DNA of 64,000 bases, taken from Balanoglossus misakiensis (taxonomy: Eukaryota; Animalia; Hemichordata). The stretch is from positions 8,493,664 to 8,557,663 of the forward strand of contig CM082590.2 in the NCBI GenBank assembly GCA_040954595.2. Direction: 5' to 3'. The position numbers and the translations under genes are program-made. Below, in pieces: positions 6,618 through 37,401 of the stretch. How positions within the stretch are numbered: the stretch's first letter is position 1; the number at the start of each line of letters is the position of its first letter. The notes below the pieces were generated by a model, which worked only from the letters and a program-made list of their open reading frames with translations, had not been told where the DNA came from and ran no database searches.

Positions 6618-7947
6618 TATATAATTATTTAAGTGGCCAGTCAAGGGACTGCAGTAACATGTGGGTCAATGCAGTAGTTTTACATGAGGAGTCAGTTGAT
6701 TGTTTATTTTGATTTGTAGCCAAAGATTTCAGTGAAGATCGTTGGTTTCCATTATATCTTTCCACAGAATTTCTTCGTTTCTATTGCGACTTCAACAATA
6801 CTTTCTTTCTGTCTTTTAATGAGCTGTTGAAACAGCTGAGCTTTGACAAAGTTTTTGGTGAGCAAGTAGCGTGCAGTGCCAACTGTAGAGGGCTTCACAG
6901 CAAATTTTTAACTTCTGATGTTAATAATTAATTCACTACTAGTAACTCATTATACTAGGAAGGTGGTTCATGTTGCAGTTGCAAGTCGTCACTCACTAAA
7001 AGTAAGCGATTATTATGGTATTTTTTGTATAAATGCTATATTTTAGAAAGGACAGTGTAAAAAAGTGCATGAGGTTAGGATATAATCGAAAAGAGAACCA
7101 AAACTGTAAAATTATGATTTTTTGTAATTGTTCATCTGTGTGAAAAAGTACCACAGAGGTATTGCAGAGGTCATCTGAGGTTACTTATGGAATTTCTATT
7201 TCCTTGTACTAAATTCTAAATTACGAAGAAATGTGTGTTGTTAGAGGGAAATTATTATCAAATCTTGTATTAATGGTTGTTGAAGAAAATTCACAGACAA
7301 TGCAGGCTTCGATCAGAAATTTGGAAGTATCATATATTTGCGTTGAAAGTCTAGTCAGTTCTCGTCAAAAATATTGGTGTGGGTAGATAGAGATGCACTG
7401 CACCTAAAGGTACTGGCAACAAAACATTTGATTGGTCCGCGATCATTTGGTAAAGTAGACAGGCTATGATTGGTCTACAGTGTCACAAAGCACTCCACTG
7501 AAGACAGCTAGGCTTACAAGAACGTTGTTGGGTGAAATTTTTCAGGGAAAAAAATGCAAATAAACCAGAATTAATGCAGTGTGCATGTTTGTGTGTGATG
7601 GGGCCACTGTTATTGTTGACAAATTCAATGCTGATAAAAAAGTGATTGATTCACATAATCGATTCACATGTATTTACCATAATGTGACATTGTTGGTAAA
7701 AAGTTTGTTTATTCAGAATACTTTGTTAAAACCTTTTTCTTGACATTATTTGGGGAAAAATATGTATAGATGTGTAGCTTATGAATTATCATACCAAAGT
7801 AAACAATACAAGTCTACTTGATACTGCTATTTTTTTATTTACTTGACACTGATATGTTCTTTGATAGGTGTGACAGATATATTGCGTTCTGTTGTTAACA
7901 CTTTGAAGAACTCCACACACTGAAGTGAGCTGGAAATATAACCAAAG

Positions 7948-10900
7948 ATGGCAGGATTTGACCCATTTAAGGTGTATCTTATAAGGCTGGCAGATGATAT
8001 TGTAGGTGGTGAGTGTGCATTTGACTGTTTTTACTCCAGTGACACTTGAAGACACTCATGGATGTCTATCTGTCAATATGCAGGGCTGTGACCACAGACA
8101 TTATAACTCACACAAGCCTGAACTAATTTTTATGCAAACTTGGCGCAAGGATAGTGTATGCATATGTAATCATTCATACTTCTTGTACTAATGCATGTAT
8201 CCAAGTCATTTTGTTTCATGATATAATCCCATACGGCTAACCACAGCCCACAAGGGATATTTTGTCAAGAAACTTTTTCATGTCTTAAAGTTTCAATATT
8301 AATGCATTTTGGACAGTGATTGCAACTGTAACATTGAAGTATTTCAGGAGAGCATTATTTCCAGAAAATGTTTAATGTATAATCTTTTCTTTTATGCATT
8401 AAAGATGACCTGATTAAATTGGTCAATGGACTGGGTGCTATATTGGATCCTTCAATACCTGCAGTTAAAAGGGAAGAAATTCGGACAGAGAAACATGCAT
8501 TTCTTTTGTTTGAAACGTTGTTAAAATTTGGACATTTATCAAGGGATGAACCTGAAACTCTTATTCAGCTCTTGAAAAATGCCGGACTTTACATGTTAGC
8601 AAAGCATGTAGAAGTTCGATATGAGAAAAAGTTTGACAAAGACTATCCATATGATGAAGTGACAAGAGAAGCAGAGTCCAAGACTCAAGTATCAACCACG
8701 GAATCTTATGGTAAGGACTTGCAGAATTTACTAATGTACATTTGCATTTAATACCGTAATCACCCTTAATGTTTAACCATAATTAAATTTATAGAGGCCA
8801 ATCAAGGCTTTCTTGGCCTTTATGGACAGATGTTCTTTATAGACAGATCAATTAACGCTTACATTTAATTGCTCAGGGACAAAGTGGCCACTAACACAAG
8901 TTCCAGTGCGAAAATAGATGATTTTAAGAACTGGTGGCCAAATATATGGAGATGAATTGAAAACTTAATTTGGAAAAGAAATAGTGGTCAAACACTTAGA
9001 GTGCTTACAGTATTAAATTGAAATATACTTTAAAAAGAATTCCACACACAATTAATGCACCGATGCGATTTTTCACATGATTCAGATATCTCATATGTCG
9101 GTGATGTTGCTGCTAGCAGTGCAGTTAGTTCAGCTGCAACACAGATAGAGATAAAGACAATGATGAATGATCCAGAAGGTGAAACCACAAGTGTACAACA
9201 CCACATAGACAGACATGATTTACGTTGTGCACAGTATCACTTGATGGCAAGACTGCAGACGCTATCACCTAGGCAACAAACTGATTCAGCTGTAGAGGAC
9301 ACTACAACCGCAGGTAAACTTACTTTTGAAATCATCATTTTATACGAGTATTCAAATTTTCTTCACCAGTGGAAAAGATGTGCAGAAATTATAGTGCACA
9401 AAGGCACAAGATTCGAATAGTATGGTATTTCAATGTTCGATGATAAATTCTACATTTGGTTTTACCTGTAACTACTGCCTATGAATGTATCAGTGGGTTT
9501 TTTTATTTAGAACATCTGCAATGAATGGATTATTTTATGTCAAAGAAGAGAAAAAAATCATTATTAAAGATTTGTTTTATGTTAATTATTTTATTTTGAT
9601 AGATTCTCAACAGGATGATCAACCTAGCACTTCTGATTATAAACCAACCATGAATATGCCAACTGTAGATATGTCAACCATGAAAACTACACCAGGTAGG
9701 TTTCTTAATTACCATGTTTGGTTGAACCCTTTCACTACTATGGTTTGGTCCACGTGGGTGAGAGAATTAGATTTTCTAATCTCAATCACAAGAAGACATC
9801 TGAGCCCATCAATCATTTTGTTATCAGTGCTTGAAAATTTTTAATCAGGAATCACTTCATTGATGTTCAATTATGTTGAGGGGCTATTTCATTCAAATTA
9901 AACACTCAAAAATCACATTTGATGAATTGTTGGCTGTTGCTCCATGATACTTTGATTCTTGTGATCAGTAATACAGAAATATTCAATGATAATAATTTCA
10001 GATGTTGTCATCAAGTGCCAACAAAAGTTGCAAGAATACTATGAGAGACAGTCCAACATTCTCCCCTTACCATGGTGGGATGGAACAGAGAGATTGAAAC
10101 TTGAAGATATCTACATTGAATTAGAATTACAAACCAAAGATGGACATTTCAGAGATTTTGCAATACAAGATTTATTCACAGGAACTAATAATTGTAAAAA
10201 TCCAAGACGAATTTTAATAGAAGGTGATCCAGGGTATGGTAAGTCAACTCTTTGTAAAAAGTTGGCATATGATTGGGCAAACGGCAATGTAAACTTTCTC
10301 AATTGTTTCAAACTTCTTTTTCATTTTGAATTGAAAGATCTACATGAATACCATTCAGAAAATAGTCAGAAACAAAGTCTTAAAGATGCAGTTTTTGATT
10401 GTTTGTTACAAAATGTCGAAGGAGCAGATGAGATATGGAGTTTTGTTGAAAGCAATCAATCACAAGTGTGTTTTGTCTTTGATGGACTTGATGAAGTCAG
10501 TACTGATGATCTCCCAGTGTATTTTAAGCAAATGATCCGAGAAAAAAGACGACTGCTGCCTAACTGCCCAGTAATTGTAACGTCTCGGAAAATCAGGGAT
10601 AAGAACTCTAAACAGATGTATGAGAGACAATTATTGATTAAGGGTTTTGATACAGAGAATGCAGAAGCTTTTATTAAAAAGCATATAAATGCAATGTCTT
10701 CAATGGATGAAACTGTAACACCAGAAACAGTTGAGGGTTTTATCAATGAATTGAACACATCCACCCATGACAGCATTTTGTATGGATTTTTGCAGAGTCC
10801 TTTGAATACTTTGATGTTGTGTGATATTTGGATGGAAACAAAGAAACTACCACACACAATCACAGGACTTTATAAAGAGTTAACTGATTATGTTGTAAAG

Positions 10901-13900
10901 CGATACTGTGAAAAACAAGATAACATTATTGATCCAAATAGTGATGAAATCATGGATGAAATTCTCTACTTATGTAAACTCTCATATACTGCTTTGAAGT
11001 CTGGTAAATATTCTTTCAGTGAGAAAGATATTTCAGGTCATCCACACTTACAGAAATTGGGACTTCTGACAAAAACCTCTCGACCTCCAAGCTATAACTT
11101 TTATCATTTCACATTTCAGGAATATTTTGCTTCATTGTACATTTCCAATCTATGCACTAGTAACCATAAAGAATTTGAAGATTCTGTTGCATTTTCAGTT
11201 ATTGGAGATTATTTACTTAGGAATGATGCAATGTTGAAGTTTCTTGGTGGTCACTTGCAAGACAATGTTGGTGAAGTATTCAAGGTTTGGGAGAGTAGGC
11301 CTTTTTCAGATAAATCCTTTGATGCAAGGCCAATGTTGTATGAAAGTGGTTGTGAATCTGAGGAAACAATATTTTACTGTGCTAAGTTTTTACCCAAATA
11401 TCTGAAAATAGACCTTAACGACATCATGGATAACCAGTCTGACAAATACATGCTTCATGTCAACACAGAGCTGTTGAGATGCCCAAATATTAGTTCTAAA
11501 TTCATCACATTGAATATGTCTGCATCAAATTCTATGACAACAGATATATTCAGAAAATGTTTGGACTCATTCAAAACTAAGTACCGGTATAATGAGGACA
11601 TGTGCCAGAGGACTATAAATATAGAATATGATATAAAAGAATGCGATGACAAAAATTTTGTGTGCAATTTTGATTTTATAAATGAAATATCCTCTGACAT
11701 ATTGAGAGAAGCAAGTGTCACTACTGCCAGAGATGAAGAGTGGAAATATCGAAAATATGTGGGGATTGAAGTGAGGGTTTTGAATGACGATAATTCAAAC
11801 ATGAAAAGCATTCATCTGCATAATATAAAGTGTCTAGTGGAAGGTTTGTCAAAGTTGACTGAACAATTTGACATGGATGGATTACCTGTTGAGTATTGTG
11901 AAGTTATGAAACTTTTACGCATTGAGAAAGTTTCCAACCTGATAAACCGTGTGTCAGTCAATTTTGCTGAATGTCAACAATACCAGCAAACAGTACTTAC
12001 ACAGGCTGATTGTGACCATTATAAACTATTCTTGGAATGTTCTGATTCTAAAAGTACTGACATAGACATAAACGCTTTGACAAGTATGGTCGAATGTCTG
12101 TCACAGATTACTGCCAACAAGCTTGTCATTGAAGGGTTACCTGCAGGTGATATTAAGTTCATAAAAAATGTATATGCATTATTATGTGGGAATAAGTCGC
12201 TTGGGTCAGTTGATGTGAATGCTGGTTTGAAACCATGGCAATTACATTATAAACTAAAGATCAAAGCTAGGTTTGGACAGTTTCAAAGCTTTTACAGGAT
12301 AGATACCATAAATTTTGATTTACCAAGTTTATGTGAGATGTTTTCACAGTATGCATCTGTTCGTAATGAGAAACTTTTACTAGACGTGGAAGTAAAGTGT
12401 GATTTTAAAGATGAGAACAGTGATTCTGACATGGAGACTTTGTTGAGAGGAGTGACATCAGTTGAATTTGATTATCTATTATTAGTATTCGAGAATTATA
12501 CTGACGAAGAGCTCAGTTATCGTGGTCTTGGAGGTGTAGTCCAATGTCTGTCACAGATTACTGCCAAAAATCTTGTCATTGAAGAATTACCTTTTGGTGA
12601 TATGAAATTCATGGAAGCTGTACATGAATCATTATGTAGAAATCAGTCTCTTGGATCAGTTGCCATTGAATCCAAGTGCAGTTCAGGGCAAACTAAGTTC
12701 AGACCCTTTGACAGAAGCACATTTGATTTTGAGGGGAAGCACAGTTGCTTTAAGGGCAAATACACTGTGAATACTAGGGATTTTTCTTTAATAGATTTGT
12801 GCCAGTTGCTTTCTCAATATGGTAAGATTAACAGAGTTAGGCGGGAAATTGAAGTCAGTTATGATTCCAATAATGAGAACATAAAAGCTGATATACAGTC
12901 TTTGCTGGCAGAAGTGAGTTCTGTTAATTTTGAAAAACTGTCATTGAAATTCAATATTTCAAGAGACGTAGAAACTGATTTTCTTGTTGCCACAACAGAT
13001 GCCATCCAATGTCTGTCACAGATAACTGCCAACAAGCTTGAGATTAAAGGGCTCCCAGGGTGTGACATGGAATTCATTAAAGGTGTACATACACAGTTAT
13101 ATAAGAATAAGTCTCTTGGATCAGTTGATGTTGAATTTTATGATCCAGGCGTGGAATTGTCGAACATAGGTCAACTGGTTATTAAGGCAAAGTTTGCACA
13201 TTTTAATTTCTGTTACGAGACATATAACATGAATTTTGATATTGTGAGTCTACACCAGTGTCTTTCAGAGAATGCATCTGTGAATAATGATGGACTTAAA
13301 CTAGACATGGATATTGAGTGTGATTTCAGGGACAAATCTGCAGCTGATGTACAGACTTTGCTGCAAAGAGTAAAATCAGTTGGTTTCAACATTTTATCAC
13401 TGAAATTGTCTGATAGCACTGATTCTTATTCAGATTATGATTCTTGTTCTGGTTCTGATTCTAATTGTTCTAACTTAATCACTGGTCTTGCTGGCCTAGT
13501 CCAATGTCTGTCACAGATTACTGCCAACAATCTTGTCATAGGGAGGTTACCGATAGATTGTACAGAATTCATGAAAACTGCATATGCAGTGTTGTGTGAG
13601 AGTAGGTCGATCAGGTCAGTTGATGTAGAATTGTATTGTGATGGTAACAAGAGGCAGAGGTACAGACATGTTACAGTACATGCTAGTGCCAAGTTTGGAA
13701 AGTTTGAAATCCATTTCTCTCCAGATTTTGTGAGTGTTTATCAGGCACTTTCAGAGTATGCATCCACTAATCATGATGAAGTTACTCTAGACATGAGAAT
13801 CATGTATTTTCGTGATTTGGAAAACACGATCATTTCTGACATACAGGCCTTGCACAGAAGGGTGGCCCTGGTAAAGTTTGATAGGTTGTTAATGGACTTC

Positions 13901-15919
13901 TCTATTAGGGACAGGACATACCGGTACTACAGCTTCAAAGAAGACATGTCCAACACAGCTGGTCTGGTCCAATGTGTATCACAGATTACTGCCAAACAAC
14001 TTCACATTAACTTGCCACGTCACTGCAGCACAGCATTCTTAAACACATTGCATGCAGCATTGTGTGAGAATAAATCACTTGGTTCCTTTTCTTTGAAAAT
14101 TGGCACGACAGACCGACTTGGTCAGAAAGTCAGGGGAAGGCAAATGAGTATTACTAATCTAAATCTCACTGCCAGGTTTCAACTTGACAAGTTTTCTAGC
14201 AGGTGTTACAAGATGTATGGACAGAGTTTAGATTTCCTTAATCAGTTTCAGTTGTTGTCACAGAATGCGTCCATTGATAGTGACAGAGTTACACTGGACA
14301 TGGATATCACATGTGATTTAGATGATGAGAACCTTGAGTCTGATGTAAAAGCAATGCTTAAAAATGTTGTAGTCAATTTTAATAAGCTGTCCTTGGTAAT
14401 TTATGGTTACACGGGTTACACCATTTCCATTCATGAAAGTATTTGTCGTATTACTGGCATAATCTCAGACTTTCTGAAATTAAGAGCCAAAGAAGTTAGT
14501 TTGGTAGTAAGATATGTCAAGTTAGATTTCATCAAAACTATACATAATGCGTTAAAGAAATACCAACCAAGTACGCCAAAACGAGTGCACTTTCAACCTA
14601 GTTGCCCTGGGGACTGTCAGCTTTGCTCAGATTCTCATCGATATCACTGCAAGATTATCGCCAAGATTGGAAATCATGAATTTTTAATTGATATTTGCAA
14701 ATCAAGTTGTGACCCTATCGGTCTTCATCAAGTACTTTCAGATTGTCTGTCGACAGACGAGGAGAGCATTTCCATAGATGCAAAGATATCTCATTGTTCC
14801 TGCAAACTCTGTTGGGGGAACTTTGGTGTTGTGACACAATTCATATTGGCCTTTTCGGATTTACTTAGGTTCAACAACGTCAGATTGAGTGATGATTGGT
14901 GGGCATTGTCCTGGCCTCGCAGTCAACAAATATTACATAGTTTGGCTCTGGTGAATGCCCCAACTTTTACCTATAAATCAGAGTGCATTGACAATTATGG
15001 CTTCGCAAAGGCCTTATGCAATATTGTTCAAGAATGTCAACATGTTGAAACATTCATCTTGTCAGTAATTAGCAGGGTAAAAGATGCTCATAGAATTTCA
15101 GAGGTAACTGATAGATTTGTGGTTGCTGGCATGGTTATCGGTCAATTGGAATTTGAAGGTCATTACTTAACTGTGTGTGGCAGATACAACTCATCCAAAA
15201 TCATCAAACTTCAATATTCACTGCATTATGCTTCAGATTTAACCTATTATCATCAGTATGTAGGGCGTGAACCTCGTGAGACCAAGATTGTCGAATTCAA
15301 ACGTGAGACTAAATTGGACAGGTATATTGAACTGTGTGATGTCACTGAGGTGGAATCTATCTTACTAGAAGACAACAATGCTTTGACTGAATTGCACAGA
15401 CAAATCTGTTGTGGTCTATCAAACACATCTGAACTGAAGTCACTGACAATTAAAATGCACCCTGGTTATCGATCGTCTGGAAAATCCTATTCACGAGTTT
15501 TCTCACTGGAGAATGTGTGTAGATGTGTTCGAGTTCTGCCATGTCTGTCCAAAGTCAGCATCATTGATGGGAAAACACCATCACATGACACTTGCAGAGA
15601 TCAGTGGAAAGAGTTGATCAGCAAAGAGTCATTGGAAGACGTAGAGTTCAAAGGTTGTGATTTGAATGGCAGTACTCAGGCTTTGATTGACAGCATCTCA
15701 GAATCTGATAAATGTCGACAAAGTCAACTTCAGATTGAACTCTGTGATGCATTGCAACCAGGGAATGTAAACATCTTGAAAGATGCATTGATGGAAGGTG
15801 GTTTTGTCGTGGATGATAGTTGCTCATCCTCAGATGATGAATGTATTCTGTGTTTGAAAGGTGACCATATCAAAGTTACTTTGACCTCTTGTGGCCAGAA
15901 AGTCCTGACCGCAACCTGA
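7948..15919 (+). CDS. NLR-like protein copy 1 (DED-like + NACHT + long repeats), join(7948..8008,8405..8710,9086..9313,9603..9695,10002..15919), 2201 aa
   Basis: All introns are GT-AG phase 1 and exons sum to 6606 nt. N-terminus FDPFKVYLIRLADDIVGDDLIKL..LFETLLKFGHLSRDEPETLIQLL resembles the FADD DED. NACHT motifs: Walker A GDPGYGKST, Walker B FVFDGLDE, sensor-1 VIVTSR, SPL, winged-helix FYHFTFQEYFA. Confidence 0.85.
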
Positions 15920-16161
15920 ACTCTGACCTGAAATATCAAATAATAACCAAACAATAAAGAAACCCCCTTTTCGCAAAACTACTGGTTTCAGATAATGAAT
16001 AAGTCTTCATTATTAAAACCATTTAATTTGTATTTTCATTTATGTTAGGAGGTGGAGCAAAAGTTGCCAAAAACCTTCATGTGTATAAATTTTTATATTG
16101 TAGTATACTATATTTTTGTATTATATAAAGATTGTGTACATAAGAATTCATATGTATGTTT

Positions 16162-16221
<60 letters not shown>
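16162..16221. repeat. (GT)n microsatellite downstream of NLR copy 1 stop (paralogous runs at 26657-26689 and 37652-37693)
   Basis: Direct run; length differs between the three units. Confidence 0.9.
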
Positions 16222-16223
<2 letters not shown>

Positions 16224-17623
16224 CGCACTTGTGTGCACGAATGTGTATATAGTGATGAGAGTGAGAAAGTATAGTTTGACTTTTTCTACATTGTAAAAGT
16301 TCATATTGGCTCACATACAGCCATAGAGACACAGTATCCAAGTTTCATGTTAGAAATCTAACCATTCCTGTATACCCTGGTATATATTGTATAACTTTAG
16401 TCACATTTTTACCACAATTAGGTACAAGTATATATCTACCGTTGAACGATGTTTTTTATTCTTTTACATGAAAACTGCCATGCCCTGGATCACTCAGGTT
16501 TTTATCAATGTTATTTGACATTTTATAATAAACAAGCAATTATTGTAATATTTCAAGGATTTCAGCATAAGTATTCAAATCATTGCCATACAAGTATTTC
16601 ACATTTACTTGTATTTTCTCTAATGTATGCTTATCATTTTTGTCAATGTAAGATTGTTTCCAGAAACTTATTTCTTAATCTGTTATTTTTATACATGTTG
16701 TGAAAAGATTGTCATGTTTCATGAACCACTGTCATGCAATTTTTCTTTTAATGTACAAACATTTGAATTTGTTGCTTGAATTTTACATAAAACAGTCAGA
16801 TTACACTGTATGTTATTTGGAAAATTGTAAATAAAATATTAATAAAAAAGAAGGAATTTTCAGTATTATTTTGTGTCTGATGGTATTTTTACCCCAGCTG
16901 TCATGATTCTCACAGGAATAATGGAAATAATCTTAATCAAATAACTTCTTTGGGCAGTTTAAACAGTGCAGTGCCAACTGTAGAGGGCTTCACAGCAAAT
17001 TGTTAACTAATTCTGTTGTTGATTAATTCACTACTAGTAACTCATTATACTAGGGAGGTGGTTCGTGTCGCAGTTGCAAGTCGTCACTCACAAAAAGTAA
17101 GAGATTCTTATGGTATTTGTTTTGTATAAATGCTATATTTTAGAAAGGACAGTGTAAATAAGTGCATGAGGTTAGGATATAATTGAAAAGAGAATCAAAA
17201 TCACTGCAAAATCATGATTTTTTTAATTGTTCATCTGTGTGAAAAAGTACCACAGAGGTATTGCAGAGGTCATCTGAGGTTACGAATGGAATTTCTATTT
17301 CCTTGTACTAAATTCTAAATTACGAAGAAATGTGTGTTGTTAGAGGGAAATTATTATCAAATCTTGTATTAATGGTTGTTGAAGAAAATTCACAGACTAT
17401 GCAGGCCTCGATCAGAAATCTGGAAGTATCATATATTTGCGTTGAAAGTCTAGTCAGTTCTCGTCAAACATCTTGGTGTGGGCAGATAGAGCTGTACTCC
17501 ACCTAAAGGTACTGGCAACAAAACATTTGATTGGTTCGTGATCATTTGGTTAAGTAGATAGGCTGTGATTGGTCTACAGTGTCACAAATCTTTCCACTGA
17601 AGACAGCTAGGCTTACAATAACA

Positions 17624-17781
17624 TAGACTGTCTCACAGCCCCCCTCGCCTTCCATGCTTATACTCTGATTGCATGTGTACCAGGCGAGAGGTTCGCTACA
17701 CAACTTCATATGGGGCTTTGCTAAACGGTTGAGGGGGCATCAGTGAGGAGCCAGCGAACCGTGGGCTGTGAGAGCTCTCTG
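17624..17781. mobile_element. Degenerate MITE of the same family as 18398-18572
   Basis: TAGACTGTCTCACAGCCC...GGGCTGTGAGAG ends; shares internal tctgattgcatgtgt..ggcgagaggttcgctacacaac and aaacggttgaggg. Confidence 0.75.
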
Positions 17782-18170
17782 TTTGTAGTGTGTGTTTGTT
17801 TGTTTGATGTTATTGATTGATATAATAAACAAAAAAATGCTTGAAAAATTTGTTTACAAATATTATCACATTTGTTTGTATGTTTGTTTGTTGATAGGTT
17901 AATAGGAGGATTGGGGTTGGCGTTCATTCACGTGACATTGTTGATAAGACATTAAAAGCCTTTCTTTGCATGAAAAATATACGTATAGTTGTGTATTTTT
18001 TCTAATCATCAAACCAAAAATAAATAAAACAACTCTACTTGATACTGCTATGTTTTTTTTACTTAAAACCTAATATGTATTCCTTGATAGGTGTGACAGA
18101 TATTAAAATCTGTTGTTCATCCCTTTAGAAGAACTCCACAAACTGAAGGCAGCCGGAAGAATAACCAAAG

Positions 18171-21100
18171 ATGTCTAATTTTGATCCATTTAAGAAATAT
18201 CTTTTTAAGCTGGCAGAATATGGCATTGGAAATGGTGAGTCGTACATTTGAATTTTTTTGCCCTGTTTGAGTACTCTAGCACACTCATGGATGTCTACCC
18301 AACAATTGGTGTCACGCCTCGGTTTTGACTGTGGATGCATGGATTGTATAATGATACATATGCATGCATCCACAGTCAAAACGCACATACACCTGAATAG
18401 ACTCTCTCACAGCCCTTCTCGCCGTACATGCAGGCTTATATGGTCTGATTGCATGTGTGCCCGGCGAGAGGTTCGCTACACAACACCAAACGATGCTTCT
18501 CCCTTGCCAAACGGTTGAGGGCGTGTCAGTGAAGAGCTTGTTGTAGCGAACCATGGGCTGTGAGAGAGTCTAACACCTGAACTGAATTTATTCAAACTTG
18601 GTCCAAGGACTATACACGACCATCTCAGTTTCAATTTGAATAATTTGACAGTGATATCCTATAATTTTAAAGTACACATGTATCTCATAAACAATTTATT
18701 TAATTAGAAAAATGTTTAATTTATAATCATTTTGTTTTTGCTTTAAAGATGACCTGACAAAATTATTAGATGCCTTGACTATTTTAAGGAATCCTTCAAT
18801 ATCTAAAAGGAGAATTGAAGAAATTAAGAAAAGCAAAAATCCATTCAGTTTGTTCGAAGAATTATGTGACAATGGACATTTATCAAAGGACAAACCTGAG
18901 ACACTTATTCAGCTGTTGGAAATTGCCGGACTTAACCTGTTAGCGAAGCATGTAGAAGTTCGATATGATAAAAAGTTTGACAAAGACTATCCATATGATG
19001 AAGTGACAACAGAAGCAGAGTCCAAGATTCCAGTATCCACCACAGAATCTTATGGTAAGGACTTGCAGAATTTTACAATACAAGTATGCATTTATATTAT
19101 GCAAATACCATGTTCACCCAAAATTATGATTTTGGGTGAGATGAAATGATGAAAAAAAGTCTCTCTTCAGCTGGTCAAAGTGATTGAAACATATGGCATT
19201 TTGAAGTCATCTATGCAGTTCAAATGGTCATGGTTTGATGCTGTCATCACTAACCACAGACCATCCTACATAATGGTTTGAATGCTCGCATTTGTGAACT
19301 AATGAGCCAAATGTATGGCAGTAAAATGAACATTTAATTTTGAAAAGAAATGGTGGTTAAGCATTTTGAGCAGTTGAACACTTAGAGTACTTGTGGTAAT
19401 TGAAATATATTTTAATAGGAATTCTACACACAAGAATGAATTCAGCAGTGTTTATCTTTCCCATACTGTACATCAGGTTTTTCAAATGTCGGTGATATTG
19501 CTGCTAGCAGTGCACTTAGTTCAGCTGCAACACAGATAGAGATGGCGACAATGATGAAAGATCCAGAAGGTGAAACCACAAGTGTACAACACCACATAGA
19601 CAGACATGATTTACGACGTGCACTGGATTCCTTGACAACAAGACTGCAGTCACTATCACCTAGGCAACAAACTGATTCAGCTGTTGAGGACACTACAACT
19701 GCAGGTAAACTTGTTTTTAAAATCATCATTTATTCTTGTATTTGTATATACCAGTAATAATTTTACTTCGATTTGAATACAGATTTCAATGTTCGAAAAT
19801 AAATTCTACATTTGGTTTTATAGTAGTTACATGTACAAGTATACTTGTAACCTCTTCTTATAAATGTATCAATACTTTTTACTTTACAACATCTGCATTA
19901 ATTTTGTGTCAAAGAAGGAGAAAAAATGTTATTAAAGATTTGTTATACGTTATTTTTTTTTTATAGATTCTCAACAGGATGACCAACCAAGCACTTCGGA
20001 TTATACACCAACCATGAATATGCCAACCGTGGATATGCCAACCATGAAAACTACACCAGGTAGGTTTCTCACAATGAATTGGTTGAACCCTTTCACCACA
20101 ATGGTTTGATCCAAAACTATTGTTTTCCGTGGTGAAATTGGTCCTTCATAAAATGAAATGGGTGACAGAATTAGATTTTCTGGTCTCAATCACAAAAAAA
20201 GACATCTGAGCCCATTCATCATTTTGTTATCAGTGCTTGAAAATTTTTAATCAGGAATCTTTTCAATGATGTTCAAAGATGTTGTGAGGCCTATAAAATG
20301 CTCAAAAAATCACAATTGATGAAATGCTAGCTGGTGCACCATGATACTTTGGTTCTTGTGATCAGTAATACAGAAATATTCAATGATAATAATTTCAGAT
20401 GTTGTCATCGAGTGCCAGCAAAAGTTGCAAGAATACTACAAGAGACAATCCAACATTCTCCCCTTACCATGGTGGGATGGAACAGAGAGATTGAAACTCA
20501 AAGATATCTACATTGAATTAGAATTACAAACCAAAGATGGACAGCTCAGAGATTTTGCAATACAAGATTTATTCACAGGAACTAAAGATTGTAAAAATCC
20601 AAGACGAATTTTAATAGAAGGTGATCCAGGGTATGGTAAGTCAACTCTTAGTAAAAAGTTGGCATATGATTGGGCAAAAGGCAATGTAAACTTTCTCAAT
20701 TGTTTCAAACTTCTTTTTCATTTTGAATTGAAAGATCTACATGAATACCATTCAAGAAATAGTCAGAAACAAAGTCTTAAAGATGCAGTTTTTGATTGTT
20801 TGTTACAAAATGTCGAAGGAGCAGATGAGATATGGAGTTTTGTTGAAAGCAATCAATCACAAGTGTGTTTTGTCTTTGATGGACTTGATGAAGTCAGTAC
20901 TGATGATCTCCCAGCGTATTTTAAGCAAATGATCCAAGAAAAACGCCCACTGCTGCCTGACTGCCCAGTAATTGTAATGTCTCGGAAAATTAGGGACAAG
21001 AACTCCAAACAGATGTATGAGAGACAATTATTGATTAAGGGTTTTGATACAGAGAATGCAAAAGCTTTCATTAAAAAGCATATAAATGCAATGTCTTCAA

Positions 21101-26412: not shown

Positions 26413-28518
26413 ACTATGACCTGAAATATCAAATAATGACCAAACAGAAAAGAAACACCCTTTTCGCAAAACTACTGGTTTCAGATAATGAATAAGTCTT
26501 CATTATCAAAACCATTTAATTTGTATTTTCATTTATGTTAGGAGGTGGAGCAAAAGTTGCCAAAAACCTTCATGTGTATAAATTTTTATATTCAGACAGT
26601 ATACTATATTTTTGTATTACATAAAGATTGTGTACTTAAGAATTCATATGTATGATTTGTGTGTGTGTCTGTGTGTGTGTGTGTGTGTGCACGCACTTGT
26701 GTGCACGAATGTGTATATAGTAATGAGAGTGTGAGAAAGTAATTTGACTTTTTCTACATTGTATAAGTTCATGTTGGCTCACATACAGCCATAAAGAGAC
26801 AGTATCCAAGTTTCGTGTTAGAAATCTAACCATTCCTGTATATCCTGGTATATATTGTACCACATTAGTCACATTTTTACCACAAGTAGGTACAAGTATA
26901 TATCTACCGTTGAACAATGTTTTTTTATTGTTTTACATGAAAACTGCCATGCCCTGGATCACTCAGGTTTTTATCAATGTTATTTGACATTTTATAATGA
27001 ACTAGCAATTATTGTAATATTTCAAGGATTTCAGCACAAGTATTCAAATCATTGCCATACTAGTATTTCACAATTACTTGTATTTTCTATAATGTATGTT
27101 TATCATTTTTGTCAATGTAAGATTGTTTCCTGAAACTAATTTCTAAATCTGTAAATTTTTATACATGTTATAAAAAGATTGTCATATGTTTTCTAAATCC
27201 CTGTCATGCTATTTTTCTTTTTATGTACAAAAACTTGAATATTATTGCTTGAATTTTACATAAAACAGTCAGATTACACTGTATGTTATTTGGAAAATTG
27301 TAAATAAAATATTAAGTAAAAATAAGGAATTTTCAGTGTTATTTTGTGACTGAAGGTATTTTTACCCCAGCTGTCATGATTCTCACAGGAATAATGGAAA
27401 TAATCTTTATCAAATAACTTCTTTGGACAGTTTAAACAGTGCAGCGCCAACTGTAAAGGGCTTCACAGCAAATTTTTAACTTCTGCTGTTAATTAATTCA
27501 CTACTAGTAACTCATTATACTAGGGAGGTGGTTCGTGTCGCAGTTGCAATTCGTCACTCACAAAAAGTAAGCGATTCTTATGGTATTTTTTGTATAAATG
27601 TTATAAATTTTAGAAAGGACAGTGTAAATAAGTACATGAGGTTAGGATATAATTGAAAATAGAATCAAAATCATTGCAAAATTATGATTTTTTTAATTGT
27701 TCATCTGTGTGAAAAAGTACCACAGAGGTATTGCAGAGGTCATCTGAGGTTACGAATGGAATTTCTGTTTCCTTGTACTAAATTCTAAATATCGAAGAAA
27801 TGTGTGTTGTTAGAGGGAAATCATTATAAAATCTTGTATTAATGGTTGTTGAAGAAAATTCACAGACTATGCAGGCCTCGATCAGAAATCTGGAAGGATC
27901 TTATATTTGCGTTGAAAGTCTAGTCAGTTCTCGTCAAACATATGGTGTGGGCAGATAGAGATGCACTGCACCTAAAGGTACTGGCAACAAAACATTTGAT
28001 TGGTCGGTGATCATTTGGTATTAAGTAGACAGACTGTGATTGGTCTATAGTGTCACAAAGCATTCCACTGAAGACAGCTGGGCTTACAAGAACATTGTTG
28101 GATGAAATTTGTCAGGAGAAAAAATGCAAATAAACCAGAATTAATGCAGTGTGCATGTTTGTGTGTGATGGGGCCACTGTTATTGTTGACAAATTCAATG
28201 CTGATAAAAAAAGTGATTGATTCACATAATCGATTCACATGTATTTACCATAATGTGACATTGTTGGTAAGAAGGGTTATTTTTCAAAATACTTTGTTAA
28301 AACCTTTTTCTTGACATTTTTTGAAAAAAATATGTGTAGATGTGTAACTTATGAATTATCAAACCAAAGTAAACAATACAAGTCTACTTGATACTGCTAT
28401 TTTTTTTATTTACTTGACACTGATATGTTCATTGATAGGTGTGACAGATGTATTGCATTCTGTTGTTAACCCTTCGAAGAACTCCACACACTGAAGTGAG
28501 CTGGAAATATAACCAAAG

Positions 28519-31500
28519 ATGGCAGGATTTGATCCATTTAAGGTGTATCTTATAAGGCTGGCAGATGATATTGTAGGTGGTGAGTGTGAATTTGACTGTT
28601 TTTACTCCAGTGACACTTGAAGACACTCATGGATGTCTATCTGTCAATATGCAGGGCTGCGACCACAGACATTATAACTCACACAAGCCTGAACTAATTT
28701 TTATGCAAACTTGGCACAAGGATAGTGTATGCATACATGGTAGCATACAGAATCATTCATACTCCTTGTACTAATATGCAAGTCAATTTGTTTCATGATA
28801 TAATCCCATCTAACAAGGGATATTTTGTCAAGGAGTTTTTTCACATCTTTCAATATTATTGAATTTTGTACTGTGATCAACTGTAACATTGAAGTATTTC
28901 AGGAGAGCATTATTTTTTGGAAAATGTTTAATGTATAATCTTTTCTATTATGCATTAAAGATGACCTGCTTAAATTGGTCAATGGACTGGGTGCTATATT
29001 GGATCCTTCAATACCTGCAGTTAAAAGGGAAGAAATTCGGACAGAGAAAGATGCATTTCTTTTGTTTGAAACGTTGTTAAAATTTGGACATTTATCAAGG
29101 GACAAACCTGAAACTCTTATTCAGCTCTTGAAAAATGCCGGACTTAACCTGTTAGCGAAGCATGTAGAAGTTCGATATGAGAAAAAGTTTGACAAAGACT
29201 ATCCATATGATGAAGTGACAAGAGAAGCAGAGTCTAAGACTCATGTATCCACCATAGAATCTCATGGTAAGGACTTGCAGAATTTACTAAGTAACAAGTG
29301 TACATTTGCATTTAATACCGTAAAAACCCTTAATGTTCAACCAGAATTAAATTTATAGAGGACAATCAAGGCTTTCTTGGCCTTTAAAGTGGAACGTTGT
29401 GATCCGTTTTTGAGCCAATTCTGCGAAATGCGATTAAAAAGTACTATGAAAAACGTTGGTTTCATTCACTTTCACTTACGCATAACAGAGCTACAGCCAG
29501 CCAAAAACTGCGCGAACCCGGAAGTGAGTGACGTCAGCAACTCGTTGGAGCGAGCTTATGCTTATACACGCCTGCACTCACGCGCCCGACGACGTTAGCA
29601 TGGCAACATATTCTCGGGTAGTAGGCTACAATTTTGAACCAGAGATTCCCTTCTACGACCAAGCGACTGAATTTTACAGAGGACAAAAGTTCATGCAGTT
29701 CTGATCTCCGATGTGTCCCGTTTGTCAAGGCTTACACTTGGTGTGGTTTCAGTGAAACCATAGACCCTAGAGTCTATGGTGAAACAGACAATGCTGCAAT
29801 TAAACAATACCCTCCCTCGTTGTCACCTTTTCGAACCACTTTTCTTACAAAAATACTTAGTCACCTTTTATGGAGTTGAAAAGAACGCAGGTGCATCGTC
29901 CTGCTCTCCAGGTGTAGTACGTCCGTAGTATAATGGAAGCCAATACTATAGTTATTGTATGCATGTTTCGTCTCTTGAAATGTATTAAAACTGCCCTTTT
30001 TAGTTGCTTTCATTTGATAACTATGCGATCGTCAATAAATGGAAATTAAACCCAAATACGTGTACCAAAAAACGTGCAGGAAGGATTTAAAACGGTACGT
30101 TTATTATTATCAGCGGCAGTTAGAACAACTTTGTATAGGCCTTACGGTTTGTTCATAAACGTCGACATGCATGGCATCATGGACATTGCAGGGTCTATGT
30201 CTGCACGCATCGACAAATAAAATACACGAAGAGCATTGCCTTTGAAAGAAACTTATCCCCGTCGATTTTCCGAATATGTTTTTAAAATCATGAACTTGAC
30301 ATTTCGCCATGTCAGATCCGCGCAAAATGTGTCTGTTTATTGGAAATGACACGTCGAACGTGTAAGTTGCTGACGTCACTGTAGTATTTTCAACGCGCGT
30401 CTTCTGCTTGCGCAGGAAGTGAAAGTGAATTAACCCATCGGAACGTTGCCGTTTTTGACACCCGGTTTGTACTTTGAAGCCCAAAATTGAGGGTGTCGTT
30501 CCACTTTAAGGACAGATGTTCTTTATAGACAGATCAATTAACGCTCATGTTAATTGCTCAGGGACGAAATGGCCACTATATAGAGGTGGCCACTGTGATG
30601 TAAAGTGATGTAGGCAGTCTATATCTTTAGCTTTGTCAAAGTTACTGAAACACACTGCATTTTGCATTCATCTGACCCTTTGAAAAAGTGTCATTCACAA
30701 AGCAAAAGGTCACGTTTAGATGCTGTCCTCATTAAGGACAGAAATGTTTCATTATCCTTCATTAGGTTTTGAATGCAATCATTTAATTTTAAGACTGGGT
30801 GGCCAAACATGTGCAGGTGAAATGAAAAATTAATTTTTATTAGGAAATAGCGGTCAAAGTAATTTTGAGCAGTCAAACACTTAGAGCGCTTAAAGTATAA
30901 TACTTTAAAACGAATTTCACACATAAACACTTGGATCGTGCCTGTGGTAATTGAAAAATATTTTTAAAGGAGTACAACACACACACAATTAATTCTCTCT
31001 TTAATGTTTATCTTTCATTCTTTCATATACTTCAGGTATTTCAGATGTCGGTGATGTTGCTGCTAGCAGTGCAGTTAGTTCAGCTGCAACACAGACAGAG
31101 ATGATGACAATGATGAAAGATCCAGAAGGTGAAACCACAAGTGTACAACACCACATAGACAGACATGTTTTACGTCATGCACTGGATTTCATTATGACAA
31201 GACTGAAGCCACCATCACCTAGGCAACAAAGTGAGTCAGCCGCTGCGGACACTAAGAATGAGAAAGGCAAAACATTTTACAAAAAATTGATCAAATTGTT
31301 GCACTAATATTTTTTTCATAGAAAAATTCTTTAAGTTAATCAGAAAATCACATGTGATGAAGTGTTGTTGCACTGCAATTTGAAGTGCCACCCTGACATT
31401 CATGTATTGGTATTCATGTAAGCGGTTAAATAAGAAATATTCAATTGATTTAATTTCAGATGTTGTCATCGAGTGTCAGCAAAAGTTGCAAGAATACTAC

Positions 31501-34500
31501 AAGAGACAGTCTAACATTCTCCCCTTACCATGGTGGGATGGAACAGACAGACTGAAACTCGAAGATATCTACGTTCAGTTAGAATTACAAACCAAAGATG
31601 GACATTTCAGAGATTTTGCAATACAAGATTTATTCTCACCATGTTATGAATGTGAAAATCCAAGAATTTTAATAGAAGGTGATCCAGGGTATGGTAAGTC
31701 AACTCTTTGTAAAAAGTTGGCATATGATTGGGCAAACGGCAACGTAAACTTTCTCAATCGTTTCAAACTTCTTTTCCATTTTGAATTGAAAGAATTACAT
31801 GAATACCATTCAGAAAATAGTCAGAAACAAAGTCTTAAAGATGCAGTTTTTGATTGCTTGTTACAAAATGTCGAAGGAGCAGATGAGATATGGAGTTTTG
31901 TTGAAAGCAATCAATCACAAGTGTGTTTTGTCTTTGATGGACTTGATGAAGTCAGTACCGATGATCTCCCAGTATACTTTAAGCAAATGATCCGAGAAAA
32001 ACGCCCACTGCTGCCTGACTGCCCAGTAATTGTAACGTCTCGGAAAATCAGGGACAAGAACTCCAAACAGATGTATGAGAGACAATTATTAATTAAGGGT
32101 TTTGACAGAAAGAATGCAGAAGCTTTTATTAAAAAGCATATAAATGCTATGTCTTCAATGGATGAAACTGTAACACCAGAAACAGTTGAGGGTTTTATCA
32201 ATGAATTGAAGACATCCACCCATGACAGCATTTTGTATGGATTTTTGCAGAGTCCTTTGAATACTTTGATGTTGTGTGATATTTGGATGGAAACAAAGAA
32301 ACTACCACACACAATCACAGAACTTTATAAAGAGTTAATTGATTATGTTGTAAAACGATACTGTGAAAAACAAGATAACATTATTGATCCAAATGGTGAT
32401 GAAATCAGGGATGAAATTCTCTACTTAAGTAAACTCTCATATACTGCTTTGAAGTCTGGTAAATATTCTTTCAGTGAGAAAGAAATTTCAGGTCATCAAC
32501 ACTTACAGAAATTAGGACTTCTGACAAAAACCTCTCGACCTCCAAGCTATAACTTTTATCATTTCACATTTCAGGAATATTTTGCTTCATTGTACATTTC
32601 CAATCTATGCACTAATAACCATAAAGAATTTGAAGATTCTGTTGCATTTTCAGTTATTGGAGATTATTTACGTAGGAATGATGCAATGTTGAAGTTTCTT
32701 GGTGGTCACTTGCAAGCCAATGTTGATGAAGTATTCAAGGTTTGGGAGAGTAGGCCTTTTTCAGATAAATCCTTTGATGCAAGGCCAATGTTATATGAAA
32801 GTGGTTGTGAATCTGAGGAAACAATTGTTCATTGTGCAAGGTTTTTACCCGCACACCTGAATGTAGACTTTGACATCATGGATAACAATTCTGACAAATA
32901 CATATTTATCAACACATTCAAGCTTTTGAAATGCCCAAATATTTGTTCTAAAGCCATCACATTGAAGATTTCTGCATCAAATCCTTTGACGCCAGATACA
33001 TTCAGAAATATTTTTGACTTATTCAAAGCTAAACACATGGAGGATATACATCTGGATATAGATATGAAATATGATATAAAACAGTGTGATGTCAAAAATA
33101 ATGTTTGCAATTTTGATTTTATAAATGAAATATGTTCTGACAAATTGAGAGAAACAAATGCCACTTCTGCCAGAGATGAAGAGTTGAAATATCTAAATAA
33201 TGTGGAGATTAAAGTGGAGGTTTTGAATCACGATAATTCAAACATGAAAAGCATTCATCTGCATAATATTAAGTGTATAGTACAAGGTTTGTCAAAGTTG
33301 ACTGAACAATTTGACATTGAGGGATTACCTGTTGAGTATTGTGAAGTCATGAAACTTGTACGCATTGAGAAAGTTTCCAACCTGATAAACAGTGTGTCAG
33401 TCAATTTTGCGAAATGTCGACAAAACCACCAACCATCACTTCATATTAAGGCTAATGGTAATTGTAAGAAGCTGTTATTGAAAAAATACCAGCAACCATC
33501 ACTTAATATTCATGGGGCTAATGGTAATCATAATAGGCTGTTATGTTCTGGTTCTAATAGTACTGACTTAGACGTGAAGTCTTTGACAAGTATGGTTGAA
33601 TGTCTGTCACAGATTACTGCAAGCAATCTTGACATTTTAGGATTACCTGTAGGTGATATTGAGTTCATAAAAACTGTACATGCGTCATTATGTGGGAATA
33701 AGTCCCTTGGGTCAGTTCATATGAATGCTGTTTTGTTACCATGGGAATCACATAATAATAAACTAACGATCAAAGCTAAATTTGGACAGTTTCATAGCTT
33801 TTACAGGATTGATACCATAAATTTTGATTTACCAAGTTTATGTGAGATGTTTTCACAGTATGCATCTGTTCGTAATGAGAAACTTATTCTAGATGTGGAA
33901 GTAATGTGTGATTTTAAAGATGAGAACAGTGATGCTGACATGGAGACTTTGTTGAGAGGAGTGACTTCAGTTGAATTTGATAATTTATCATTGGTATTCA
34001 GGAATTATACTGATGAAGAGCAAATTCATCTTGGTCTTTCTGGTGTAGTCCAATGTCTGTCACAGATTACTGCCAAAAACCTTGACATTAAAGGATTACC
34101 TTTTGGAGATATGGAATTCATAAAAGCTGTACATGAATCATTATGTAGAAATCAGTCTCTTGGATCAGTTGTTGTTGAAGTTGAATCTTTCCAGCAGTCA
34201 AGACAAACTAGTTTTAGATCCTTTGACAGAAGTACACTTTACATTGAGGGGAAGCACAGTTGCTTTAATGGCAGGTACACTGTGAATACCAGGGATTTTG
34301 ATTTTTCAGATCTGTATCAATTACTTTCTCAATATGGCAAGATTAACAGAAACAGAATTAGACGGGAAATTCAAATTAGTTGTGATTCTAATAATGAGAA
34401 CATAAAAGCTGATATACACTCATTGCTTGCGGAAGTGACTTCTGTTAATTTTGAAAAACTGTCATTGAAATTCAATATTTCAAGAGCTGTAGAAACTGAT

Positions 34501-37401
34501 TTTCTTGTTGCCACAACAGATGCCATCCAATGTCTGTCACAGATTACTGCCAACAAGCTTGAGATTAAAGGGCTGCCAGGGTGTGACATGGAATTCATAA
34601 AAGGTGTACATACACAGTTATGTAAGAATGAGTCGCTTGGATCAGTTGATGTTGAATTTTATGATCCAGGCATGGAATTGTCGAAGTTAGGTCAACTGGT
34701 TATTAAGGCAAAGTTTGCACATTTTAATTTCTGTTATGTGACACGTAACATGAATTTTGATATTGTGAGTTTACACCAGTGTATTTCAGAGAATGCATCT
34801 GTGAATAATGATAGACTTAAACTGGACATGGATATTAAGAGTGATTTCAGGGACAAGTCTTGTGTAGCTGATGTACAGGCTATGCTTGAAAGCGTGAAAT
34901 CAGTTGGTTTTAAAATTTTATCACTGAAATTGTCTGATTACACTGGCAGTAACACGCATTCTGCAGCTGGTACAAATGTACAACAAAGTTCTGATTCTGC
35001 TAGTCCTGACTTAATCACTGGTCTTGCTGGCATAGTCCAATGTCTGTCACAGATTACTGCCAACAATCTTGTCATAGGGATCTTACCGAGAGACAGTATA
35101 GAATTCATAAAAACTGCATATGCAGTGTTGTGTGAGTGTAGGTCAATAAGGTTAGTTGATGTAGAATTCAGCTGTGATGGTACCAAGAGAGAAAAAGATG
35201 TAAAGTTTGGTGATACTGTCATTGCCAAGTTTGGAAAGTTTAAAATCCATTTCTTTCCAGATCGCAAGAGTTTTGATTTTGTGAGCGTTTATCAAGCACT
35301 TTCAGAGTATGCATCTATAAATAATGATGAAGTTACTCTAGACATGGACATCACGTATTGTCATCAATTGGAAGACAAGAACATTTCTGACATACAGGCC
35401 TTGTACAAAAGAGTGACCCTGGTAAAGTTTTGTAGGTTGTCAATGGACTTATCTGATTTCATGTACAACACTGCAGGTCTAGTCCAATGTGTATCACAGA
35501 TTACTGCCAAACGAGTTGACATCAAATCGCCACATGATTGCAGTGTAGCATTCTTAAACACATTGCATTCAGCATTGTGTGAGAATAAATCACTTGGTTC
35601 ATTTTATTTGGAGGAATACCACAGGGGAATGCAAAAGAGTACTCTGAATCTCACTGCCAGGTTTCAACTTGACAAGTTTTCTAGCAGGTGTTACAAGATG
35701 TATGGACAGAGTTTAGCTTTCCTTGATCAGTTTCAGTTGTTTTCACAGAATGCGTCCGTTGATAGTGACAGATTTACAGTGGACATGCATATTGTATGTG
35801 ACTTAAGAGACAAGAACCTTGAGTCTGGTGTAAAAGAAATGCTGAAAAATGTTGTATCAGTCAATTCTAATAAGCTGTCCTTGGCATTTTATGGTTACAG
35901 CATTTGTCGTACCACTGGCATAATCTCAGATTTGCTAAAGTTAAGAGCCAAAGAAGTAAGTTTGAAAGTAGAGTATGTTAAGTTAGATTTCATCAAAACT
36001 ATACATGATGCGTTAAAGAAATGCCAACCCAGTATGCCAAAACAAGTGCACTTTCGACCTAGTTGCCCTTGGTACTGTGTACTCTGCTTTGGTAAACACT
36101 GCAAGATTATTGCCAAGATTGAAAATCATGAATTTTTAATTGATATTTGCAAATCAAGTTATGACCCTATCATTCTTCATCAGGTACTTTCTGATTGTCT
36201 GTCGACAGACGAGGAGAGCATTTCCATAGATGCAGAGATATCTCATTGTTCATGCAAATTCTGTTGGGGGAACTTTGGTGTTGTGACACAATTCATATGG
36301 GCCTTTTCGGATTTACTTAGGTTCAACAATGTCAGATTTCGTGATGATCAGCAGAAATGGTTCTGGTCCAACCAACAAATATTACATAGTTTGGCTCTGG
36401 TGAATGCCCAGACATTTACCTATGTTTCACGGTGCATTGACAATTATGGCTTTGCAAAGGTCTTTTGCAATATTGTTAAAAAATGTCAACATGTTGAAAC
36501 ATTTGTCTTGTCACGTGGGTGGGATATCAGTTGGTTTTATAATAATGATGTTCGTAAATATCCTCATAGAATATCAGAGATAATTGATAGATTTGTAGTT
36601 TCTGGCATGGTTATTCGTCAATGGGAATTTGAAGGACATCACTTAACTGCATGTGGCAGATACACCAACTCATCCAAAATCATCAAACTTCAGTTTGCAT
36701 TGTTATATCATTCAGATTTGGCCGACTATGATCAGTGTGAACAGAGTGAACCTACCTTAAAGTTTGTCGAAGTCAAACCTGAGACTAAATTGGACCGGTA
36801 TATTGAACAGTGTGATGTCACTGAGGTGGAATCTATCTTACTAGACGACAACAAGGGTTTGACTGAATTGCACAGCCGAGTATGTAGGGGTCTGTCAGAC
36901 ACATCTGAACTGAAGTCACTGACAATTGAACACCCTGGTTATCTGTTCTCTGAAACACAATCTTATTCACGAGTTTTCTCAATACAGAATGTGTGTAGAT
37001 GTGTTCAAGCTCTGCCATGTCTGTCCAAAGTCAGCATCATTGATGGGAAAACACCATCACATGACACTTGCAGAGATCAGTGGAAAGAGTTGATCAGCAA
37101 AGAGTCATTGGAAGACGTAGAGTTCAAAGGTTGTGATTTGAATGGCAGCACTCAAGCTTTGATTGACAGCATCTCAGAATCTGATAAATGTCGACAAAGT
37201 CAACTTCAGATTGAACTCTGTGATGCATTGCAACCAGGGAATGTAAACGTCTTGAAAGATGCATTGATGGAAGGTGGTTTTGTTGTGGATGATAGTTGCT
37301 CATCCTCAGATGATGAATGTACCGGTATTCTGTGTTTGAAAGGTGACCATATCACAGTTACTGTGACCTCTTGTGGCCAGAAAGTCCTGGCTGTGACCTG
37401 A
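28519..37401 (+). CDS. NLR-like protein copy 3, join(28519..28579,28961..29266,31036..31230,31460..37401), 2167 aa; lacks the 93-nt linker exon
   Basis: Exons 1-2 nearly identical to copy 1; phase-1 donor A|gtgagt at 31230/31231; total 6504 nt; NACHT motifs intact. Confidence 0.8.
29388..30505. mobile_element. 1,118-bp non-autonomous DNA transposon with TTAA TSD and AG..CT termini (Kolobok-type)
   Basis: TTAA|AGTGGAACG...CGTTCCACT|TTAA; absent at the paralogous site in unit 1 (ggcctttatggacagatg, about 8815-8832). Confidence 0.9.

Follow-up and report, generated by a model that had tools for sequence, protein, structure and literature searches.

The window analysed here, a stretch of 64,000 nucleotides from the hemichordate Balanoglossus misakiensis (GenBank assembly GCA_040954595.2, contig CM082590.2, positions 8,493,664 to 8,557,663 of the forward strand), carries between its positions 7948 and 37401 a tandem cluster of three giant genes in which a DED-like domain and a NACHT domain are followed by an array of repeats of about 155 amino acids. 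What this repeat is, and what kind of protein it serves, are the questions raised by the locus. A preliminary description, made from the letters of the sequence, had proposed a sensor region built of such repeats rather than of canonical leucine-rich repeats (LRRs). Our analysis indicates, with a probability of roughly 0.65, that the three intact genes encode intracellular immune receptors of the NLR type, the sensor of which is predicted to be a solenoid of modified LRRs made of these ~155-residue units.

The ~155-residue unit and the three genes that carry it

Gene 1 contains five strong units between positions 12074 and 14446 (12074-12523, 12524-12988, 12989-13483, 13484-13951 and 13952-14446), followed by a divergent sixth unit with Cys/His-rich loops (14447-14914). 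Units 1-6 of gene 2 occupy 22462-25323, with a 19-residue loop insertion in unit 3, and those of gene 3 occupy 33580-36363, all on the plus strand. In copy 1 the QCLSQITA-type motif recurs after 150, 155, 165 and 156 residues, that is 450, 465, 495 and 468 nt, exactly the spacings first described; the repeat period in the sequence ranges overall from 147 to 185 residues. Scored with a hidden Markov model (HMM) from which one position was left out at a time, units 1-5 reached 111-170 bits in all three genes versus no more than 12 bits for shuffled sequences (600 shuffles per test), and those of gene 1 are mutually 30-46% identical. With the same model, unit 6 scored 15-22 bits and the N-terminal flank, a partial unit, 5-16 bits, and an hhalign comparison of unit 6 and units of Glandiceps talaboti with the unit profile gave a probability of 96.5 (E 9e-10). 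The six recognisable repeats initially counted after the NACHT thus comprise five strong units and a sixth that is recognisable only as a divergent one. The Cys/His clusters of unit 6 (14585-14812) lie in two loops, C-x3-C-x2-C-x4/7-C and C-x-C-x2-C, are kept in all three genes and could possibly form a zinc site.

None of the 15 units reached a Pfam family cut-off (best E 0.017), the regions before and after the units matched no Pfam family, and a search of PDB sequences with the unit returned only two chance rows (E 1.5). A known domain was rejected on these grounds, in keeping with the early suspicion that the repeat belongs to no described Pfam family. A description of the unit was likewise not found in a literature search, the coverage of which leaves out most subscription journals and some supplements; the accessible parts of PMC13133943 and PMC8195603 held nothing bearing on a ~155-residue repeat.

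The genes lie in three duplication units of 10,095 bp (6871-16965), 10,473 bp (16966-27438) and 10,995 bp (27439-38433) on the plus strand, delimited by self-BLAST and junction sequences and arranged head-to-tail with a common junction sequence. Each holds a long stop-free frame (9965-15919, 1,984 codons; 20362-26412, 2,016 codons; 31384-37401, 2,005 codons), to which upstream exons were joined at AG/GT sites with phase-1 introns; splicing is predicted from open frames and splice sites, not from RNA. The resulting coding sequences on the plus strand are those of gene 1 (7948-15919; exons 7948-8008, 8405-8710, 9086-9313, 9603-9695 and 10002-15919; 2,201 residues), gene 2 (18171-26412; exons 18171-18234, 18749-19054, 19477-19704, 19967-20059 and 20399-26412; 2,234 residues) and gene 3 (28519-37401; exons 28519-28579, 28961-29266, 31036-31230 with a GT donor, and 31460-37401; 2,167 residues). 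Gene 3 is without the fourth exon present in genes 1 and 2, and its exon 3 may alternatively end at 31266 through a GC donor, which gives 2,179 residues. There are no internal stops in any model. The models agree with the preliminary description on three intact genes of about 2,200 residues, on the bounds of the cluster (ATG at 7948, final stop ending at 37401) and on the location of the NACHT and all repeats in one exon of about 6 kb, predicted here at 5,918, 6,014 and 5,942 nt in genes 1, 2 and 3; the proteins encoded by these large exons are 72-77% identical among the three copies. An assembly artefact or haplotype duplication was ruled out by the head-to-tail order, the common junctions, the 72-77% protein identity and the patchy distribution of differences; pseudogenes were ruled out by the freedom of all three models from stops and frameshifts.

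About 80 bases 5' of each ATG (about 7870, 18090 and 28440) lies a conserved acceptor-like site, which suggests an upstream untranslated first exon. In the stretch 29400-30800, intron 2 of gene 3 exceeds its counterparts in genes 1 and 2 by about 1.4 kb and is richer in GC, possibly because of an insertion. Matches to a short dispersed repeat located near 30504-30594 occur at 6478-6623, 8818-8893, 48888-49018 and 50224-50376.

The NACHT core was located by Pfam and by motifs at 10208-10687 in gene 1, 20605-21084 in gene 2 and 31663-32142 in gene 3, on the plus strand. Pfam PF05729 scored 84-89 bits against a cut-off of 26.7 (E 4e-25 to 2e-23). Walker A, Walker B and the sensor-1 arginine are intact and followed by the winged-helix histidine motif in all three genes (motif names as used for the family), so that each copy has the NACHT with intact NTPase motifs that characterises NLRs.

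Upstream of the NACHT, a DED-like death-fold domain is encoded at 7948-8619 (plus strand) in gene 1, where it is interrupted by intron 1, and with an equal layout in genes 2 and 3. A profile built from three hemichordate proteins with a Pfam DED gave 20-21.5 bits for all three N-termini versus at most 6.6 for 900 shuffles, which bears out the death-fold N-terminus originally proposed; by sequence profiles, the genes thus have the N-terminal death-fold effector domain of NLRs. Pfam itself, run on exon 2 of two of the three copies, found DED at E 2e-6 (copy 2) and 2e-3 (copy 1), scores under the family's gathering cut-off, and the DED exon matched no PDB sequence beyond one chance row; both results speak against the assignment. 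The DEDs of genes 1 and 3 are 95% identical, while their identity to the gene 2 DED falls to 58-61%. The gene 2 DED (18171-19054, compared with 7948-8710) is far more diverged than its NACHT (90-93%), possibly by an effector swap or through another partner.

Between the two domains, the exon 3 linker (9086-9313 in gene 1, 19477-19704 in gene 2 and 31036-31230 in gene 3, plus strand) has no Pfam match and contains a motif of about 40 residues ending in a TSVQHHID-like stretch. This motif is kept in XP_070576686.1 of Ptychodera flava and in one relative from Glandiceps (XP_077991374.1), the surrounding linker having diverged; it could be a regulatory or cleavage motif.

Relatives of the genes and amplification of the unit

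The best four of 76 matches in a NACHT search were acorn-worm proteins, two from Ptychodera flava (54% and 37% identity) and two from Glandiceps talaboti (39% and 40%); coral NLRC3-like proteins came next at about 30%. In a quick tree of 24 of the 79 proteins, seven hemichordate-type rows formed a clade (98), sister among the rows sampled to coral-type NACHT proteins (SH-aLRT 97), most of which carry Pfam LRRs. The closest NACHTs, those of XP_070576686.1 (Ptychodera, 54%), XP_077991374.1 and XP_078000272.1 (Glandiceps, 39% and 40%), belong to proteins that share with the window genes both an N-terminal Pfam DED and the ~155-residue unit. These relatives are annotated as uncharacterized and are 1,100-1,250 residues long, whereas the window genes encode about 2,200 residues with five to six units. 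DED-NACHT fusions are on record in invertebrates, according to the accessible part of bioRxiv 2025.07.21.665930, and a Pfam survey of Ptychodera listed 73 (77) NACHT proteins, of which 25 (27) were DED-NACHT and 0 NACHT-LRR (PMC13012124, dataset S5 / supplementary file 4).

The preliminary description had proposed a profile of the repeat as a probe of other proteomes. Run against 1.84 billion representatives, a 15-unit profile matched two proteins at E<=0.001, the Ptychodera DED-NACHT and an unnamed fragment of 133 residues. Among the 79 proteins it found one weak unit in each of two Glandiceps proteins (E 2e-7 and 1e-6) and none in coral or fungal NLRs, so that its matches are confined to hemichordate relatives and the unnamed fragment. 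A word-seeded search with the repeat region gave zero matches among 7,988 candidates of near length, and a two-unit alignment search recovered the Ptychodera protein alone among 7,997 candidates.

Unit copy number rises from one in Glandiceps through two or more in Ptychodera to five or six in the window genes. Two units of the Ptychodera relative are near-full and two are partial; because the protein stops within a unit, the gene model is possibly truncated. When 25 units were placed in a tree, those of the window clustered by position across the three genes, with five of the six groups starred and unit 3 at 86/85; amplification of the unit therefore preceded the triplication of the gene. The Ptychodera units grouped with the unnamed fragment at 80/82, unstarred, which suggests that the unit may have been amplified independently in Ptychodera and in the lineage of the window genes.

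The predicted fold and its relation to leucine-rich repeats

AlphaFold modelled units 3-4 with a predicted local distance difference test (pLDDT) score of 78.8 and a predicted template modelling (pTM) score of 0.78, the five models ranging from 73 to 79 on an 11-row alignment. In both units, strands of 7-10 residues are predicted, and the elements follow one another as two helix-strand pairs, a loop, a two-strand hairpin, two further helix-strand pairs and a final loop; the four helix-strand rungs and inserted beta-hairpin proposed earlier for each unit are thus reproduced in the model. When the two-unit model was compared with 48,161 chains by VIA-align, the upper rows were mostly LRR proteins of the ribonuclease inhibitor (RI) type, among them RanGAP complexes, tropomodulin, CARMIL, NLRP1/2/3 and NOD2, and non-LRR proteins appeared from rank 19; the best match had a Z of 7.7 with a root-mean-square deviation (rmsd) of 5.4 over 177 aligned residues, and none reached 8.

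Downstream of unit 6, for which a three-strand meander is predicted to follow with low confidence, gene 1 encodes C-terminal helix-strand rungs and a cap (15377-15916, plus strand) that are predicted to be an ordinary RI-type LRR. In a model running from unit 6 to the C-terminus, pLDDT was 60-89 over residues 350-480, and the rungs of the last ~190 residues matched NOD2 (Z 9.9, rmsd 3.4, 151 aligned) and the NLRP1 LRR (Z 9.8, rmsd 3.8, 170 aligned); 35 of the 48,161 chains had a Z of at least 8, LRR proteins being those matched.

Several results count against an LRR identity. The two-unit Z of 7.7 falls within the VIA-align background of 7-8, so that the signal lies in the class of the matches and not in the score. 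The C-terminal match (Z about 10) is also below the level of about 13 under which a Z for repeats may mean only a common arrangement, and the C-terminal model is weak overall (pLDDT 55.7). Foldseek with the two-unit model returned no LRR among the PDB rows shown, which were generic alpha/beta proteins at a TM-score of about 0.2; no viral model matched it at E<=0.001, although the first viral row is named an LRR protein, and the C-terminal model likewise gave nothing at E<=0.001. No Pfam LRR was found, the rungs scored inside the shuffled range when compared with a profile of 198 coral LRR rungs, and no rung-to-rung homology was detected within the unit. The LxxLxLxxNxL motif has 2-6 scattered, non-periodic matches per ~1,500 residues versus 15-20 in two coral NLRs; neither this periodic motif nor the 28-29-residue repeat length of RI-like LRRs is present. 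The echo of RI-type LRRs at first perceived in an LC.NKSLGSVDV-type stretch did not rise above the shuffled controls of the coral-rung profile.

These same observations would suit a unit of other descent, an unrelated alpha/beta module that entered between the NACHT and the terminal LRR and afterwards underwent amplification: Pfam, rung homology and the coral-rung profile all fail to link unit and LRR by sequence, Z is at background level and the Foldseek rows are TIM-barrel-like and Rossmann-like. We nonetheless regard this origin as very improbable. LRR proteins lead the VIA-align lists, and the language-model neighbours (ESM Atlas; first neighbours at 0.85, lead level only) include LRR clusters, again at lead level (0.77-0.82). 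The single Glandiceps unit is collinear with flanking helix-strand rungs, and in the Ptychodera relative a lone helix-strand rung of 31 residues has been duplicated by itself (residues 831-892), so that rungs behave as LRR-like modules. Because the unit is collinear with ordinary-looking rungs and the NACHT clade adjoins NACHT-LRR receptors, it is most likely, judging from the models, a modified LRR super-motif and not a non-LRR sensor. The initial wording, repeats rather than canonical LRRs, holds at the level of sequence only: the nearest structures are RI-type solenoids, the C-terminal rungs are predicted to be of the NLR LRR type, and the NACHT clade is sister, among the rows sampled, to coral NACHT-LRR proteins.

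Within an LRR-derived solenoid, the hairpin can be placed in two ways. Its strands are amphipathic like the other four, with hydrophobic fractions of 0.83 and 0.75 at inward positions versus 0.10 and 0.27 at outward ones, and their outward positions vary as much as those of the other strands (13/20 and 7/15). The full-span LRR alignments (17 rows, among them several untitled axonemal and complex chains that we take to be LRR proteins) cover a median of 295 target residues, or about 10 rungs, for a model of 8 rungs, and 16 of the 17 exceed 8.5 rungs. On the strength of these amphipathic, face-variable strands and of the ~10-rung span, both strands of the hairpin are likely part of the main sheet, where they would form a beta-meander, giving six strands over four helices per unit and, likely, a wider and flatter sheet than the RI horseshoe. 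The other placement makes the protein an ordinary RI-type LRR, though a highly degenerate one, with the hairpin merely looping out of every fourth rung as a protruding island and the whole being a known kind of super-motif duplicated in tandem. Duplication of island-containing super-motifs is on record in the available part of PMC4030839, that of PMC3879445 describes RI-like LRRs of sponge NLRs that escape Pfam, and in the partial alignments with tropomodulin and NLRP1 each hairpin takes up no more than about half a rung to one rung of additional length. A looped-out island nevertheless seems rather unlikely to us: the hairpin strands have the conserved hydrophobic and variable polar faces of sheet strands, the full-span alignments take ~10 rungs for 8 helix-strand pairs, and strands of 7-10 residues go with an rmsd of 4-7 Å to all LRRs. 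The partial alignments need less extra room, which leaves the placement in the sheet no more than likely.

The window genes share with NLRP1, NLRP3, NOD2 and coral NLRC3-like proteins the order of death-fold domain, NACHT and (here predicted) helix-strand solenoid as well as the intact Walker A/B, sensor-1 and winged-helix His motifs, and their C-terminal rungs superpose on NLR LRRs at an rmsd of 3-4 Å. They differ from animal NLRs with RI-type LRRs in a period of ~155 instead of 28-29 residues, in longer strands, in a hairpin every four rungs and in the absence of a Pfam LRR. As in island-containing LRR super-motifs, a block of rungs and an insert has been copied as one unit, here giving five to six units. 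Block duplication is shared with the 57-residue A/B unit of ribonuclease inhibitor and the STT units of SLRP and TLR7/8/9, and a non-LRR insert with the island-containing super-motifs of LRRC17, LRRC32 and Leishmania proteophosphoglycans and with the BRI1 island. The available parts of PMC4030839 and PMC2946307 describe such higher-order units, some with a non-LRR island inside, as duplicated in block. The known super-motifs, however, keep the canonical LRR motif and have two- or three-rung units or a single island, whereas the window unit has four motif-less rungs, belongs to an NLR and carries an insert that likely extends the binding sheet. In clade A of the Amphimedon NLRs, LRRs were detected by structure-based RNI-like profiles and not by Pfam (PMC3879445); these proteins have CARD or DEATH N-termini, unlike the DED found here, and in the part of that paper available no ~155-residue super-repeat is described.

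The super-repeat of the hemichordate DED-NACHT clade, most likely LRR-derived, is real and apparently undescribed. Precedents exist for LRR super-motifs with islands, for NLR LRRs that Pfam misses and for DED-NACHT proteins; what is new is the unit, together with the hairpin predicted in it and the variability of its sheet face. We tentatively raise the possibility, which we hold to be somewhat less probable than its contrary, that the unit represents a solenoid block of a new sort, derived from LRRs but with a mixed sheet into which a beta-meander is built every four rungs, so that more than 30 strands make up a broad, flat and rapidly changing binding sheet, and that it was amplified independently in acorn-worm lineages from one ancestral copy, such hidden sensors partly explaining the zero Pfam NACHT-LRR proteins in hemichordates. 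If the models hold, at least some NACHT proteins that appear LRR-less in surveys like that of Ptychodera carry a long LRR-type sensor invisible to Pfam, and in view of this clade LRR-less invertebrate NLRs merit a structural re-check. The reach is so far small, a single Ptychodera protein having a detectable unit at library scale. The locus would be a concrete example of how an NLR sensor can grow, namely through the copying, within one exon, of a block of four rungs and a hairpin, with a predicted candidate ligand surface.

Variation between the paralogs and the remainder of the window

Identity between the paralogs is 90-93% in the NACHT, 63-82% in the units and 92-96% over the last 150 residues, with a region-wide ratio of nonsynonymous to synonymous substitution rates (dN/dS) of 0.4-0.9 in the units. 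Over five units, 66 of 110 outward strand sites differ, compared with 24 of 115 inward sites and 37 of 125 sites on the polar helix face (outward strand versus polar helix, Fisher p 4e-6; 0 of 20,000 column permutations), strand faces having been assigned by hydrophobic alternation after the per-column table had been viewed. Restricting the comparison to strictly exposed helix sites (19/65 versus 66/110) leaves the difference in place (p 9e-5). Two loops differ at 25 of 38 and 37 of 52 sites. The pattern holds in four of the five units and is inverted in unit 3 (9/22 outward versus 13/25 helix), an observation that counts against our main reading.

The outward face has a dN/dS of 1.1 (bootstrap 0.82-1.54) and the inward face one near 0.3. 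The outward strand face fits a free or diversifying surface, is compatible with a ligand surface and is no proof of positive selection. Neutrality also explains the value of 1.1, and the architecture could be as modelled with a face that varies because constraint has relaxed in young duplicates, or because it serves in self-recognition or regulation, and not through diversification driven by pathogens. An interval spanning 1, the region-wide values of 0.4-0.9 and a sample of only three sequences with patchy exchange would all suit such an account, which we consider quite unlikely given that the exposed helix is far more constrained than the exposed strand, that the frames are open over ~2,200 codons in all three genes and that inward sites are held near 0.3. 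Private differences are patchy along the three duplication units (chi-square p 1e-78), the kind of pattern that gene conversion or unequal crossover would leave.

For the receptor reading that we prefer, the history would run as follows: within an old and degenerate LRR, a single segment that included the hairpin, and that is still single in Glandiceps, would have been copied five times in the same exon; triplication of the gene would have followed, with exchange of patches between the copies since then. In NLRs the sensor autoinhibits the NACHT, a ligand allows ATP exchange and ring formation, and the effector domains recruit partners. This division of labour between domains is also stated in section 7 of PMC8662601, in the part available. 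By the logic of the family, the repeat sensor would hold the NACHT closed on ADP until a ligand bound to the variable sheet face permitted ATP exchange and oligomerisation into a ring, and the clustered DEDs might then recruit a DED-bearing adaptor or a caspase-8-like protease.

Downstream of the cluster lie three C2H2 zinc-finger open frames, at 44577-46547 (plus strand), recognised by Pfam, and at 40011-40766 (plus) and 48991-50256 (minus), recognised from their translations. A tandem array with a period of 87 bp, comprising at least 125 copies at 99% identity, extends from 53066 to 63997 and reaches the end of the window; it yields a spurious open frame of 2,538 codons on the minus strand. 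At the opposite end, positions 393-980 (minus strand) encode an N-terminal anchor and a proline-rich motif and look like the first exon of a cytochrome P450 gene.

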